A DNA stretch of 64,000 nucleotides, from positions 65,286,001 through 65,350,000 of the forward strand of contig OZ024747.1 in the NCBI GenBank assembly GCA_964016885.1, read 5' to 3'. The stretch is from Eledone cirrhosa (taxonomy: Eukaryota). The position numbers were made by a program, and so were the translations under genes. Below, in pieces: positions 7,756 through 60,951 of the stretch (the stretch's first letter is position 1; every line of letters begins with the position of its first letter). A model generated the notes under the pieces. It did not search any database. It saw only the letters and a program-made list of their open reading frames with translations, and was not told the DNA's origin.

Positions 7756-7982
7756 TATATGTGTGTGTATTATAAATTTAATATCGACATGGCTTCTACA
7801 GGACTAGAACTGTTTCATGCTGTAGAAGTGATTTCTCTATTAAATTTGATGTTTACATTCTACTAATGTATTGAGAACCTTACTTACTGTGGTTACTCCC
7901 AATTAAAACTGGGATTCTCTCACACACACTATATATATATATATATGTATAAAATCCAAAGTCAATAAATACGCCAGGATTT

Positions 7983-8043
7983 TTTCATTCTGATGATTGA
8001 AAGCAAAATTTGTTTGCTTTTAAGAAACCACTGGTAAATGAAA
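7983..8043 (+). ncRNA. Type I hammerhead ribozyme
   Basis: Stem I tttcatt/aatgaaa; core CTGATGA (7990-7996); stem II ttgaaagcaaa/tttgcttttaa; GAAA (8024-8027); stem III CC-act-GG; GTA cleavage triplet (cut after 8036). Confidence 0.85.
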
Positions 8044-8094
8044 TAATTGCCTTATGTTGTTTATTACATAACTATATATATATATATAATATAT

Positions 8095-8343
8095 AAGATC
8101 AAAAGATGGTTAAAAGAGTTCCATGTATTTTATTATGCGCATTTCAAAAACAAATATCATCATGCAATAATATTTGTGTTTTCATCAGATAAAATAGGAA
8201 GACATGATATGAAGGTTAAAAAACACTTGTGAATAGTGCAGTTTTGAATCAACATATGTATACTCCAGTCCTACAAACTGAAGAGTGCTTCTTATCCGAT
8301 ATCTGCATTGCTTTATTGTACTACAATAAAACTCACCTCCTAC
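8095..8343 (-). mobile_element. ~250-bp non-autonomous hammerhead-bearing element in (TA)n, copy A
   Basis: Close reverse complement of 54687-54940, flanked by TA microsatellite on both sides, no ORF. Confidence 0.85.
8126..8196 (-). ncRNA. Type I hammerhead ribozyme with minimal stem III (palindromic GCGC loop)
   Basis: Minus strand reads tattttat CTGATGA aaacacaaatattattg-ca-tgatgatatttgttttt GAAA T-GCGC-A TA ataaaata, giving an 8-bp stem I. Confidence 0.85.
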
Positions 8344-9615
8344 ATATATATATATATATATATATATATATATATATATATATATATACATACATACATA
8401 CATACATACATTTCCAGCCAAGCCCCACTCACATAATGAGATAATAAGCCTGCAGTTGAGAAACTGCTTTTTAAAATACAGAGTCTACACAAATATTTAG
8501 TTAGTGAGTACTGTAGTGGTGCTTTGGTAAAGATACTTCCGTATATATCTCCTGGACAGATTTTGTTTCAATGCAATATCTGTCTATAACAGTTATTATA
8601 AGTGTTATATGCCGAAAATTGCCTAGTATCAGCAGATATTAGTCAATCTCGGCCCAAACTCAACACTTTGGTCTTTAAAGTGATTTGCTGCAGGACACAA
8701 TATGATGCCAGCAATTGAACTCAAGATCTTACAATTGTGAGCTTAACACCCTTACCACTATGACACATACCTTCACTTTCATGTACATATATACATATCT
8801 ACATAGCACACATACGTATATACATACATACACATACATAAATAAATACATGCACACACATCTACATACACACATATACATACATATATTACATACATAC
8901 ATACATTCATACATACCTATATACTTATAACATGCATAAATCTGTACCTATATATGTGCATACAAAAAATATATACATACATACAAAATACATATATACA
9001 TACATACAAAAAAAACATACACACATCCACGCTTACATACATCCAAACATACATATACACACACACACATGCCGACATACATAAATATAAATAATATACA
9101 CACACATGCACACAGAAACACACGCGTACATACACACAGAAACACATGCCTACATACACACACATACATACATACACACATACATGCAGACGTATGTACA
9201 TATGTTAAAATCACTGTAAATCAGTTGTCAAAATGATGTGTACACTTTAGATGTTTTAGTATTACAACTTTATATATTTTGTTATCATTTTATCATTTCT
9301 TGAGGGATCAATGCTGGAATATTCCAACTACATTAACACCACTGCAACAACTTGAAGAGTTGTTTTATCTAAACATAAATATTTATTGTTACATAACTGA
9401 ATAAATTATTTCTAACCTAGACAAAAGTTAAGAATGTGTATGATTGATTATAGTGACTTTACATTGTCAAGAGGAAAGAGTATATATATATATATATATA
9501 CAATGTGGTCTACCTTTGATGGTAGAGTCTATACCATAGTTAGAACACAATGTAATCCATTAGCAAGTAATTCAGTGAGATCCAGAGATAGGTTCGATCA
9601 TACCATCTTCTTCGG

Positions 9616-9741
9616 ATTGTTTCCGAAGAAGATGGTATGATCGGACCTATATATGAAGTCTGATAGTATACAGTTCTCTAACTGTTATAGATCAGTCAAT
9701 ATATCAATATGATCAACCCTCCGAAACGATCGTAAAACAAT
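9616..9741 (+). ncRNA. Hammerhead-like ribozyme with long stem II and variant core CCGAAGA
   Basis: Stem I attgttt/aaacaat; CCGAAGA at 9623-9629; nested hairpin stem II; GAAA C-GATC-G TA at 9723-9734. Confidence 0.6.
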
Positions 9742-57761: not shown

Positions 57762-58942
57762 ACGGCCCTCGCAATTTGAATTTATCCCTAACTCCAGCTG
57801 CTGTGATCAGCTTATCGAGTTCCTTGAAGACATTACCTGGATTACTGACAGCGGCTCATGGGTGGATGTTGTTTACCTTGACTTTGCTAAGGCTTTTAAC
57901 TCTGTGCCACACAAATACTTATGGAGAAACTCTCTGCAATGGGTGTGAAGGATGATCTTTTTAACTGGTTGAAATCCTTCATTCTCAGCCGAAAAGAGGT
58001 AGTCACGGTTCTAGGACAGCATTCTTCACCATATGAGATGTCATCTGGTGTACCACAGGGATCTGTTCTTGGTCCCCCTTTTGTTTGTGGCATATATTAA
58101 TGACATAGATGCCAACTTAAAGAATGCCACAGTACTGAAATATGCAGATGATATCAAGCTGTACCTTGAAATCAAAAGGACTGATCCTGAAATCTATAAC
58201 TCTTTCCTACAATCAGACCTGGACACAATGCAGCAATGGATCACAGACTGGCAACTGAAGCTGGCTGTGGACAAGTGTACAACCATGCATTTTAGGAGGA
58301 AAAATCCAGCGTCCACATACTCCCTCCACAACACCGATATCAAGAAGTCCTCTTGTGAACATGACCTGGGCATTACTGTCAGCAGCGATTTGCGTTGGAC
58401 AAAGCACATCTCTAAAATTGTCAAGAAGGCCGGGGGTGTCTTGGCATCACTCAGCAAGAGCTTTGTTAGCTGCTCTCCAGCCATCTATTTAAAGCTGTAT
58501 ATAGCTATGGTACGACAGCACTTGGAATTCGCATCATCAGTCTGGAACCCCTATCTGGCTCAGAATATTGACCTTCTGGAAACTGTTCAGAGACGTGCAA
58601 CCAAGCGCATACCCTCCATCAGACACCTACCATACTCTGAACGCCTTGCTTCCCTGGGCATGGATGCATTGAAGCTCCGACGTCTGGCAATGAACTTGGT
58701 AAACACCCACAAAGTTATTAACCATCTCGCCAACAACAACCCTGAGCACCTTTTTGATCTCCATGTGTCTAACACACATGGACATGCCTACAAAGTCAGA
58801 AAACAGCACAGCTCCCATGACTTTCGGAAACATTTTTTCATGTTTAGAGTTGCTGAAGCATGGAACAAACTGCCTGCGTCAGTTGTTAGCTGCCGAGACA
58901 CTGCATCCTTTAAAACCCTCATGCTTCCTGAAATTCGCCCAA
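57762..58942 (+). mobile_element. CR1-clade LINE RT fragment (frameshifted, 5'-truncated)
   Basis: VDVVYLDFAKAF, SGVPQGSVLGP, LKYADDIKLY, HLEFASSVWNPY...LETVQRRATK and RVAEAWNKLP motifs. Confidence 0.92.
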
Positions 58943-60150
58943 ACTCACCAAGGTTTCTTGGTGAGGAGGGTGACTTTGGACATCCTGCAAGACTAAAAAC
59001 AAAACCTCTCAAAGGGCAAAGGAGCTCTTAAGAGTCAATGGCCATAGAAAATCACCGGGAGAGATGACCCCTTAGCCTTTGTCAAGGCAGATTTCTAGGA
59101 GAAGGAAAACTCTGATATAACACCTGCAACCCTGATGGTATCCAATGATGTTGACTTGTTCTTCTTTTTGGTAAATATCTTCTTGGTTAAAAGAGTGGGA
59201 CTGGCTTTGTGCAGTGCCTTTGCTCACTATAAAAGCTTCACGGCACAGGCATTGCTTTATATCTGGAGATCTCTCTGCACTTGTCATCACATGGTACCAT
59301 GGGCCCAGCACTATGTGTCAATAATTGTCACAAGTGTAGTGTTTGTACCAGAGTTTTCAAGTCGCTGGCTGGACTAAAAAGTCACACTTGTTCAGCGCAT
59401 CAGTAGGGGTTCTCCTACATGGATATAAAGTAGTGGCCGTACTCGAAAACGAGTTGGCAGCCACCATGTAAGCAAGTATGCATGTATGTTGTTTCCTATG
59501 TTTTATCTGAGAGAATCTTCCCAGAGATAACAGACTAAGTAACAGAAGCAATTCCAACCAATTTCCTACAGATTATTATAACATATTTACTTTGTTTCAT
59601 TGTAATTCTTTCAAAAGATGAAAGAAAATGGCAGAGATTTCTGGCAGGTTTTTTTTTTCTCCTATTTTCAACTATTTGATACAATATCTTCTGTATCAAA
59701 CTGTTTTCACTCATTGTCTTATGCCTACATATACACACACACATATACATACACATATACACACCATCATATACATACACATGCCATCCTTGCAAGCAAA
59801 GAAGAGCAGACGTGAAATGATGACGATGATGATGACACAGAATCAAACATATATGTAGATATCTGAAAGACACAGACACACACACACAAGTGCACATATA
59901 TGCACACATACATATACACAAACATTTTACACCAATTTGTTTCATGCTTGCATGGGTTGGCTGGGTCTTTACCAGCTATACATCTCTTCACACATTGCAT
60001 TCCTTTGTCATCTCTGCTAGATCCAGTGCTCTGGGAGCAGCTCCACATATATATATATATATGCAAACTTCAACACTCATATATATATATATATACTCTA
60101 TTACAAGTTTCAGCTAACAGGCTGGTGCTATGCTGGGGCACCACTATTGT

Positions 60151-60251
60151 AAAAATATGGAATGTTTCATGAATTTATGTGTCATCCTTGCACAGGGCCT
60201 ATGCTAATCTTCTTCGTATCATTCCAATTTTAGTATATGTACTGCTGAAGC
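60151..60251 (-). pseudogene. U6: U6 snRNA retrocopy (near full length, CpG-decayed)
   Basis: Reverse complement reads GCTTCAGCAGTACATATACTAAAATTGGAATGATACGAAGAAGATTAGCATAGGCCCTGTGCAAGGATGACACATAAATTCATGAAACATTCCATATTTTT. The ACAGAGA box is mutated and many differences are CG to TG/CA. Confidence 0.95.
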
Positions 60252-60425
60252 ATTATGTATATATATATATATATATATATATATATATATATATATTTAC
60301 ATATACATAGATAGATGTGTGTGTGTATGTGTGTGTTCAGTAAAATAGGTGTTTTGTTAAAAAAACAGGAGTAAGCAGGAAAAAGCTCTCTACATTTGTA
60401 GTGTGTAGTTACAATAGAGATTCAG

Positions 60426-60789
60426 TATAAGAATAACATTACAAAAGATGCAGTGATTACATAAAGCGTTTATTCATTATAATTATTTTATGGCAACCCT
60501 TATACAATCCAAGATGTAGTATTTACATTTATTGCTGGTATGGTAGCAATTTCTTCAGATAAATCCTTGCTTGTGTGATATGCTGAGAGCAAAAACATGT
60601 TATTCTTCTATACAAGATGTTTTTGCCTGCAGCATATCACACAAACAAGGATTCATCTGAAGAAATTGCTACCATACCAGCAACAAATGTAACTACTATA
60701 TCTTGAATTGTATAAGGGTTGCCATAAAATAATTATAATGAATAAATGCTTTATCTAATCACAGCATCTTTCTTAATGTTGTTCTTATA
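60426..60789. repeat. Fold-back inverted repeat, ~175-bp arms and ~12-nt loop
   Basis: tataagaataacatt...gcaaaaacat pairs with atgtttttgc...aatgttgttcttata; abuts a TA tract. Confidence 0.93.
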
Positions 60790-60951
60790 TATATATATAT
60801 ATATATATATATATATATATATATATATATATATATATATATATATATATATATATATATATATATATATACATATATATATATATATATATAATATATT
60901 TCGTTTCTGAATTTGACAACATGACCCTCCCAAAGTATAACAATATATATA

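Follow-up and report, generated by a model that had tools for sequence, protein, structure and literature searches.

Probable ends of Penelope-like elements, bearing hammerheads, in (TA)n tracts of an Eledone cirrhosa locus

A stretch of 64,000 nucleotides (nt) of the Eledone cirrhosa genome (assembly GCA_964016885.1, contig OZ024747.1, positions 65,286,001 to 65,350,000, forward strand), referred to as the window, contains a series of short inserts which are bounded by TA tracts and carry hammerhead ribozyme motifs. A first-pass annotation had described them as non-autonomous, ribozyme-processed retroelements, mobilised by TA-targeting Penelope-like elements. Comparison with other loci confirmed that the hammerheads are of Penelope type, belong to unrelated families and are associated both with (TA)n and with Penelope-like elements that target TA, and led to a different view of their origin. 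The inserts are probably short copies of the hammerhead-bearing 3' ends (pseudo-long terminal repeat, pLTR, plus tail) of several coding Penelope-like families, together with one tandem unit lacking an open reading frame (ORF), which likely borrows their enzymes; all were likely written into (TA)n by target-primed reverse transcription, and their activity is putative.

Hammerhead inserts and the coding regions they join

The window was searched by using a strict descriptor of the type I hammerhead, which identified five motifs, at 7983-8043 (+), 8126-8196 (-), 54839-54909 (+), 55362-55443 (+) and 55846-55927 (+); 100 dinucleotide shuffles, performed in blocks of 500 nt, produced one match in total (0.01 per shuffle). 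All five show the CUGANGA, GAAA and UH boxes in type I order, with helix I closing outside, and families C and E have the same organization with core variants. The hammerhead-related features and the neighbouring host exon are listed below (UTR, untranslated region).

7776..7827 (-): fragment, corresponding to a hammerhead 3' half, of a further common family; a second pair of fragments is found at 18918-19057
7946..8075 (+): family D, flanked on each side by TA; 5'-truncated pLTR from a Penelope-like element of Hydra type; hammerhead 7983-8043, helix III CC/GG with a 3-nt loop
8093..8343 (-): family A copy, inverted 95-nt tail and 165-nt pLTR; hammerhead 8126-8196, palindromic loop UGCGCA
9501..9800 (+): family C insert, pLTR preceded by an inverted tail and a short arm, also inverted (9501-9614); hammerhead 9616-9741, loop CGAUCG
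10266..10535 (-): family E, 5'-truncated pLTR; decayed hammerhead copy 10481-10523, family core U3-A8
10812..11003 (-): frame with a CFAP65-like exon (host gene), E 1.1e-8 against mouse CFAP65 residues 1166-1215
20282..20364 (+): family A stub flanked by TA tracts, made of 40 nt of inverted tail and the terminal 46 nt of the pLTR
53555..54650 (+): young Penelope-like element, 5'-truncated, with a linker of Neptune/Nematis type; the endonuclease frame runs to 54113 and is followed by the 3' UTR and by a pLTR with an atypical hammerhead (54399-54436)
54687..54942 (+): family A copy in the TA tract behind the preceding element; hammerhead 54839-54909
54959..56004 (+): family B, ORF-less 484-nt head-to-tail unit, retrozyme-like; 1.6 units and an inverted arm (54959-55227), hammerheads 55362-55443 and 55846-55927, loop CCGCGG
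60913..60952 (+): 40-nt stub flanked by TA tracts, from the 3' end of the 53555-54650 lineage

Of the hammerhead inserts proposed at first, those at 7983-8043, 8126-8196 and 54839-54909 were recovered exactly. The motif at 9616-9741 (+) combines helix I and a long helix II with a loop III that is palindromic, and was recovered with a variant core, since its first box reads CCGAAGA (U4 to C); this change is found family-wide, in 27 of the 31 family C copies read. At 10481-10523 (-) a decayed copy is present, with GUAA instead of GAAA and a broken palindrome; across 25 loci, family E reads UUGANAA in 21, GAAA in 23 and the palindrome CGUACG in 19. The sequence 54401-54428, previously taken for a separate insert, belongs to the end repeat of the neighbouring Penelope-like element 53555-54650, where the motif extends from 54399 to 54436 and helix I is only 2 base pairs (bp) long; a sister lineage of this element has a full 5-bp helix I and compensatory changes in helix II. 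The youngest coding family found, with copies 98-99% identical, is the one bearing the weakest hammerhead.

In each of the five families named in the first-pass annotation (A, C, D, E and that of the 53555-54650 element), longer copies continue upstream into a coding region of Penelope type, formed by an endonuclease and a reverse transcriptase (RT) or pieces of it; the term "non-autonomous" is thus unsupported for them as families. In family A, 27 of 30 endonuclease copies are followed by the pLTR 0.7-1.2 kb downstream, at 72-93% identity, and the endonuclease lies in line in 10 of 30 UTR-bearing copies at 97-98%. Among 30 loci identical to window positions 54782-54938, nine extend into the 3' UTR, two reach the endonuclease and in one the coding region follows; a family A parent (L272) has an open frame of at least 648 codons. 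For family C, the endonuclease was found in line in 4 of 25 loci, which had been chosen for the presence of the UTR, and pieces of RT in L300. Family D shows RT, endonuclease and two hammerheads in line in L129/L128 (90-92% identity), the two units being 1.1 kb apart, just outside the window. For family E, an upstream extension of 1.1-1.5 kb reaches both endonuclease and RT (L296, L297).

The element at 53555-54650 has relatives at 29 other loci, 97.9-99.0% identical, every one of which extends further upstream; 29 of 30 copies end at TA. One of them (L112) contains a frame of 858 codons flanked by two end repeats, and weak RVT_1 matches (E 7e-4 and 1e-4) were obtained for the family. The same locus shows, at 3502-3835, five 65-nt tandem repeats of the pLTR switch-back, located at an inverted junction of the full-length element. 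At 4680-5150 its coding region opens with a long asparagine-rich stretch, resembling the N-rich inserts of rotifer Penelope elements (PMC3846280).

The endonucleases of families A, C, D and E carry a CxCX5C linker, CxxC before the conserved E and CxH after the conserved N, which together are the signature of the Hydra clade. The label "Neptune", considered for all the parents, was dropped, because these four families fit the published definition of Hydra. The family of the 53555-54650 element has instead a CX4CxxC linker and a CCHH-type endonuclease, with RT upstream and a pLTR plus tail downstream, and may be classified as Neptune/Nematis-type, as judged from the linker motif. N-terminal motifs were identified in the two families whose N-termini were covered: RWK and DKT in family E (L296), DKT in family A (L336).

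Family B, which had been overlooked, has a different organization, and the idea of a non-autonomous element does fit it. The 484-nt unit has a longest stop-free frame of 94 codons; its boundary is crossed in 21 of 25 loci, one arm is longer than the unit in 16 and both orientations are present in 20. The arms end at one of two positions in 44 cases out of 47, and at TA in 43. No contiguous RT or endonuclease was found in six loci extended to 8-9 kb. The unit, taken from cut site to cut site, folds with a z score of -4.8, and none of 100 shuffles was as stable. Three further ORF-less hammerhead tandem units, with inverted arms and TA ends, were identified in L158 (1-2431, unit of 592 nt), L150 (1-1574, 467 nt) and L082 (449-1445, 538 nt); the 592-nt unit, which has the U3-A8 core and is of very recent origin, is repeated up to 2.8 times and is 98-100% identical at three other loci. 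Because the arms exceed one unit, a circular or multimeric template would be needed. On DNA anatomy, family B is likely a true non-LTR retrozyme, and the 467-, 538- and 592-nt units fit the same class; the combination of a missing coding region and a closed tandem unit, by which retrozymes are defined, is absent from the five named families, with the possible exception of the family A subfamily of 8093-8343.

TA tracts, copy ends and a putative insertion route

The association with TA was evaluated against controls. A (TA)5+ tract lies within 150 nt of 70% of 23 motifs, compared with 30% of random spots in the same stretch, and none of 1000 draws was as high. The enrichment that had been anticipated is thus present, on the downstream side only: a tract is found within 200 nt downstream (3') in 80% of 50 motifs and upstream in 18%, versus 27% for the control. 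The distances from motif to downstream TA form two groups, 32-72 nt and 108-222 nt. One-sided TA and two distance groups are the pattern expected of 3'-end priming, at a short end or at a tail end.

The other ends of the copies were analyzed in families A and B. In 21 of the 30 family A copies identical to the window, the start falls within 8 nt of a single position located 124 nt ahead of the cut site (the query design leaves out starts located further in), and short repeated junction letters are frequent. In 56 further family A arms, many of which are partners of selected copies, 33 start at the same point and one starts within 5 nt of the cut site; the corresponding number for family B is one of 47 arms. 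A correspondence of 5' ends to the ribozyme cut site, implied by the term "ribozyme-processed", was thereby ruled out: the copies end at TA-like priming sites and, in family A, at the fixed 124-nt point, which may be inferred to be a transcript start. At the 3' side, the hammerhead is copied whole and is followed by one of two fixed end points, where the copy meets TA; arms are often head-to-head. In L348 (1330-1520) and L220, head-to-head junctions unite arms of different families (D with A, D with E), suggesting that two RNAs may prime the two sides of one break.

A putative route of insertion can be outlined as follows. The GIY-YIG endonuclease of the element would nick a TA tract, and the freed 3' end would pair with a site rich in UA, which follows the hammerhead at a distance of about 30-80 nt for the short end or 95-220 nt for the tail end. 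The reverse transcriptase would then read back through an uncut or re-ligated ribozyme, mostly halting early and, in family A, mainly at the probable transcript start. Priming would be possible on both sides of the break, which would produce inverted arms. Since the new ends are flanked by TA, they would serve as targets for following insertions, giving chains such as 53555-56004. The hammerheads would cut chiefly as dimers, through the self-complementary loop III; a solitary end copy would probably be inert, and tandem units such as family B, presumably using Penelope-like enzymes in trans, would yield unit-length, possibly circular, RNA.

Several results weigh against the origin of the inserts from coding Penelope-like elements, or against parts of this route. 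In the subfamily of 8093-8343 only one of 33 arms truly enters the UTR, two more being mirror-junction artefacts; this subfamily may be a non-autonomous, solo-pLTR lineage, to which the earlier description would then apply. Family D is linked to coding sequence through a single pair of loci (90-92% identity), and four of its long copies start at an internal TA stretch with no coding region. For family B, no coding partner was found among the compared loci without an intervening inverted arm. No endonuclease frame was recognised by Pfam, and the full endonuclease frame had no match in PDB. Atlas look-alike clusters of the family A frame, with scores of 0.94-0.98, carry RVT_1 and GIY-YIG on a minority of their members; the probable GIY-YIG identity of the endonucleases rests on motifs and on clusters with this domain in 21-31% of members. 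The folding energy of the monomers was, for most motifs, no better than that of shuffles. The presence of TA at the target before insertion, finally, rests on one informative empty-site comparison, obtained from a search over 55 loci, in which the empty site already carried a TA run of 13 nt. An empty allele was not readable over 7600-8780 in three contig sets of one sample, where the inserts had a summed depth of 1e5-1e6 and unique bins one of about 0-40, values which are no measure of copy number.

The presence of TA before insertion bears on a tentative alternative, to which a minor but real probability is assigned: TA tracts could be products rather than landing pads, added or lengthened at the 3' junction by the telomerase-related reverse transcriptase while priming. 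The median length of the pure TA run that follows a young copy is 19 units (29 copies) or 21.5 units (28 copies), longer than the null values of 8, for a tract cut at random, and 10, for complete tracts with weighting by length (p between 1e-5 and 0.008); an identical pattern would arise if long tracts were preferred as targets, or if young tracts had fewer interruptions. Tracts of (TA)4+ fill 5.8% of a sample of 60 stretches (described below), and some 5' junctions are direct, without TA; however, an intact hammerhead pointing at the tract from within 250 nt was found for only 62 of 1458 tracts, and the sole informative empty site was not devoid of TA. Lengthening of tracts is compatible with target-primed insertion of pLTR ends and is not an exclusive alternative to it. 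A bolder version is rather doubtful as a whole: dozens of Penelope-like families would together supply a few hundred thousand intact hammerheads, at least four young retrozymes without ORFs would be copied from circular RNA, and the insertions would lengthen TA repeats, so that the elements build the tracts (about 6% of the DNA) in which they later land.

A further explanation, improbable on the present data, is that every insert is an independent non-autonomous retrozyme, whose ends are generated by hammerhead cleavage and whose movement depends on a Penelope-like helper. The anatomy that it predicts is true for family B and for the units of 467, 538 and 592 nt, but all five named families join coding regions. 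The common start of 21 of the 30 identical family A copies is what a discrete short RNA would produce, but starts close to the cut site are as rare as reported above for families A and B. A tree sets 27 of 31 short A copies apart from the coding-linked ones (support 88/89), a separation which fell for the 54687 subfamily, where copies identical to the short ones have UTR and endonuclease; on the same evidence this subfamily was ruled out as a separate non-autonomous lineage. No candidates were obtained when the most derived subfamily of family A was searched for. The explanation is largely refuted for family A (54687), family C, family E and the 53555 element, for which derivation from the 3' ends of coding elements is preferred.

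Abundance and structure of the motifs

In order to evaluate the frequency of the motifs beyond the window, an unselected sample was assembled from 60 stretches of 10 kb, taken at round coordinates from 25 large contigs (599,800 bases), small contigs being left out. The strict descriptor identified 27 motifs, and none in any of 20 shuffles. A looser one identified 66, of which 54 have a self-complementary loop when G-U pairs are allowed; the corresponding means over 30 shuffles were 3.1 and 0.3. The density is 45-90 motifs per Mb, with a bootstrap range of 57-128 per Mb for the looser set. For a genome of 3.0 Gb the total is about 135,000-270,000, or 1-4 x 10^5 as a rough bracket, extrapolated from this sample and referring to motifs rather than insertions, as both arms and each tandem unit are counted. 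Single-linkage clustering of 261 matches in 240 loci produced 39 clusters, some of them surely false. In a protein search with one endonuclease as query (L140:6892-7338), the first pass returned 60,376 candidate places, of which 150 were scored, all at least 88% identical; the number of candidate places is a sign of a very large load of this endonuclease type in the genome.

The structure of the motifs is preserved across copies. Loop III is an exact palindrome in 29 of 59 motifs, when the palindrome is not used as a search criterion. When 18 single core substitutions were tried, only C4 recurred (24 matches), the others giving 0-3; the U3-A8 change recurs as a pair (11 matches), its two halves alone giving 3 and 0. 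The covariation of stems, whose absence would have spoken against the first-pass annotation, was observed in family B (25 cells with both-side helix changes in 21 rows) and in the family A superfamily (35 cells in 16 rows), and in both cases none of 500 shuffles was as high; this control leaves the relatedness of rows in place, and slid controls score far lower. The predicted dimer duplexes at loop III range between -10 and -16 kcal/mol for families A-D, and only -1.8 kcal/mol was obtained for the motif at 54399.

A chance origin of the motifs in AT-rich repeats, or their survival as dead relics without selection on RNA structure, is very improbable. In favour of it, a scan with Rfam, which had been suggested as a check, listed no hammerhead among 80 matches in the window at E up to 1, the monomer folds, the decayed family E copy and the 2-bp helix I of the youngest element point the same way, minimal hammerheads are reported to cleave weakly (PMC4209133) and 8 of 9 Xenopus dimers failed to cleave (bioRxiv 10.64898/2026.07.22.740005), but the excess over shuffles (27 vs 0 and 54 vs 0.3), the recurrence of only C4 and of the paired U3-A8 change, and the compensatory changes in helix II refute a chance origin. 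The families are non-random, and individual lone copies may well be inert.

Known elements and other features of the window

The element kinds are already known. The Hydra clade of Penelope-like elements has been defined by its motifs, hammerheads and (TA)n insertion (PMC8557442, 2021); families A, C, D and E share with it the C-terminal endonuclease with CxCX5C linker, the CxxC and CxH around conserved E and N, the hammerhead in the end repeat and the insertion into (TA)n. Hydra-1_Obim of Octopus bimaculoides is listed with (TA)n preference in the supplement of the same paper. The statement that such elements are not catalogued in cephalopods is accordingly incorrect in part.

Minimal hammerheads in pLTRs have been described by Cervera and de la Pena (2014, PMC4209133), who ascribed solitary and opposite-strand copies to truncated elements, and reported U3-A8 and 2-bp-helix variants as well as weak cleavage. 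Like the metazoan ones, the motifs described here combine a short helix I with a long helix II, and have an unpaired base after A9, the palindromic loop III and the U3-A8 core; they also share the 2-bp helix I variant, as in Drosophila virilis, and the occurrence as mostly solitary or opposite-strand pairs. Unlike those, they have helix II loops of up to 116 nt and, throughout one family, a C4 core; the U4C change has been reported as a viroid variant (PMC3088659). That minimal hammerheads cleave as dimers through loop III is taken from the literature. The optional tails, head-to-head arms and solo pLTRs, and the CX4CxxC linker of the 53555-54650 element, correspond to the anatomy reported by Arkhipova et al. 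in 2013 (PMC3846280), the tails being longer here (41-150 nt versus about 31-40).

Non-LTR retrozymes and their Penelope origin have been covered by Cervera and de la Pena (2020, PMC7229834) and by Li, Clavereau and Pollet (2026, bioRxiv 10.64898/2026.07.22.740005). Like the animal retrozymes described there, family B and the three further units (467, 538 and 592 nt) lack ORFs and are arranged head-to-tail, with one type I hammerhead per unit, and occur beside Penelope-like elements. Unlike the long arrays of known retrozymes, they are dispersed as insertions of 1-3 units, with inverted arms and fixed TA ends; the units exceed the range of 150-450 bp given in the former paper, the range in the latter being 51-972. 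No cephalopod is included among the retrozyme hosts in the parts of these two reports that were covered, and the supplements of the 2026 report might list further species. Likewise, neither a cephalopod hammerhead census nor cephalopod retrozymes were found in the full-text literature searched, which excludes most subscription papers. Family B and the similar units would, if correctly interpreted, be the first retrozymes described from a cephalopod host, and are easy to assay.

The density reported above compares with totals of about 2,000-9,000 hammerheads per genome in PMC4209133; 235 Rfam hammerheads have been reported for the giant squid (PMC6962438) and 126,247 for the axolotl, which has a far larger genome (PMC7229834). 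In a recent repeat annotation of Octopus vulgaris, Penelope-like elements account for 6.83%, and the words hammerhead and ribozyme are absent from the covered parts of its text and supplement (PMC13282606). What appears to be new, as far as the literature searched allows, and moderately surprising, is the scale of the motifs, about 45-90 per Mb and invisible to Rfam, and the occurrence of probable retrozymes in a cephalopod. The many young identical copies also make the unsolved insertion mechanism of Penelope elements testable from DNA alone; clues are provided by the two fixed priming sites, the fixed 5' stop away from the cut site and the inverted junctions between different families.

The location of the inserts within a ciliary gene, extending over 7780-60950, was substantiated for one frame, the CFAP65-like exon at 10812-11003 (-). 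No match to CFAP65 was obtained for four other candidate exon frames of the window, and the full span is unsupported. The family A copy at 8093-8343 (-) is oriented in the same sense as this frame.

Other TA-bounded repeats are present. A copy of U6 small nuclear RNA (Rfam, 89 bits) is located at 60096-60253 (-), fused to the 55-nt 3' end of another repeat, with TA on both sides; the same fusion was found in 11 of 12 loci read, at 79-83% identity, and thus represents a U6-headed family unrelated to hammerheads. At 60330-60790 a head-to-head inverted insert ends at TA; its arms each contain a CUGAAGA box and a hairpin, without a GAAA box. It is probably the decayed end of a further family, with no relative among the loci compared. 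Pieces of another common TA-bounded family, with inverted arms, are found at 9795-9932 and 50669-50824; no hammerhead was called there. A satellite of 18.6 kb, with units of 34, 68 and 102 nt, occupies positions 25877-44496, and a separate array of 41-nt units positions 14992-15672. Broken reverse transcriptase/endonuclease frames of the long interspersed nuclear element (LINE) type are located at 51625-53180 (-), 57697-59031 (+) and 61713-64000 (+), one of them with a PHD finger.

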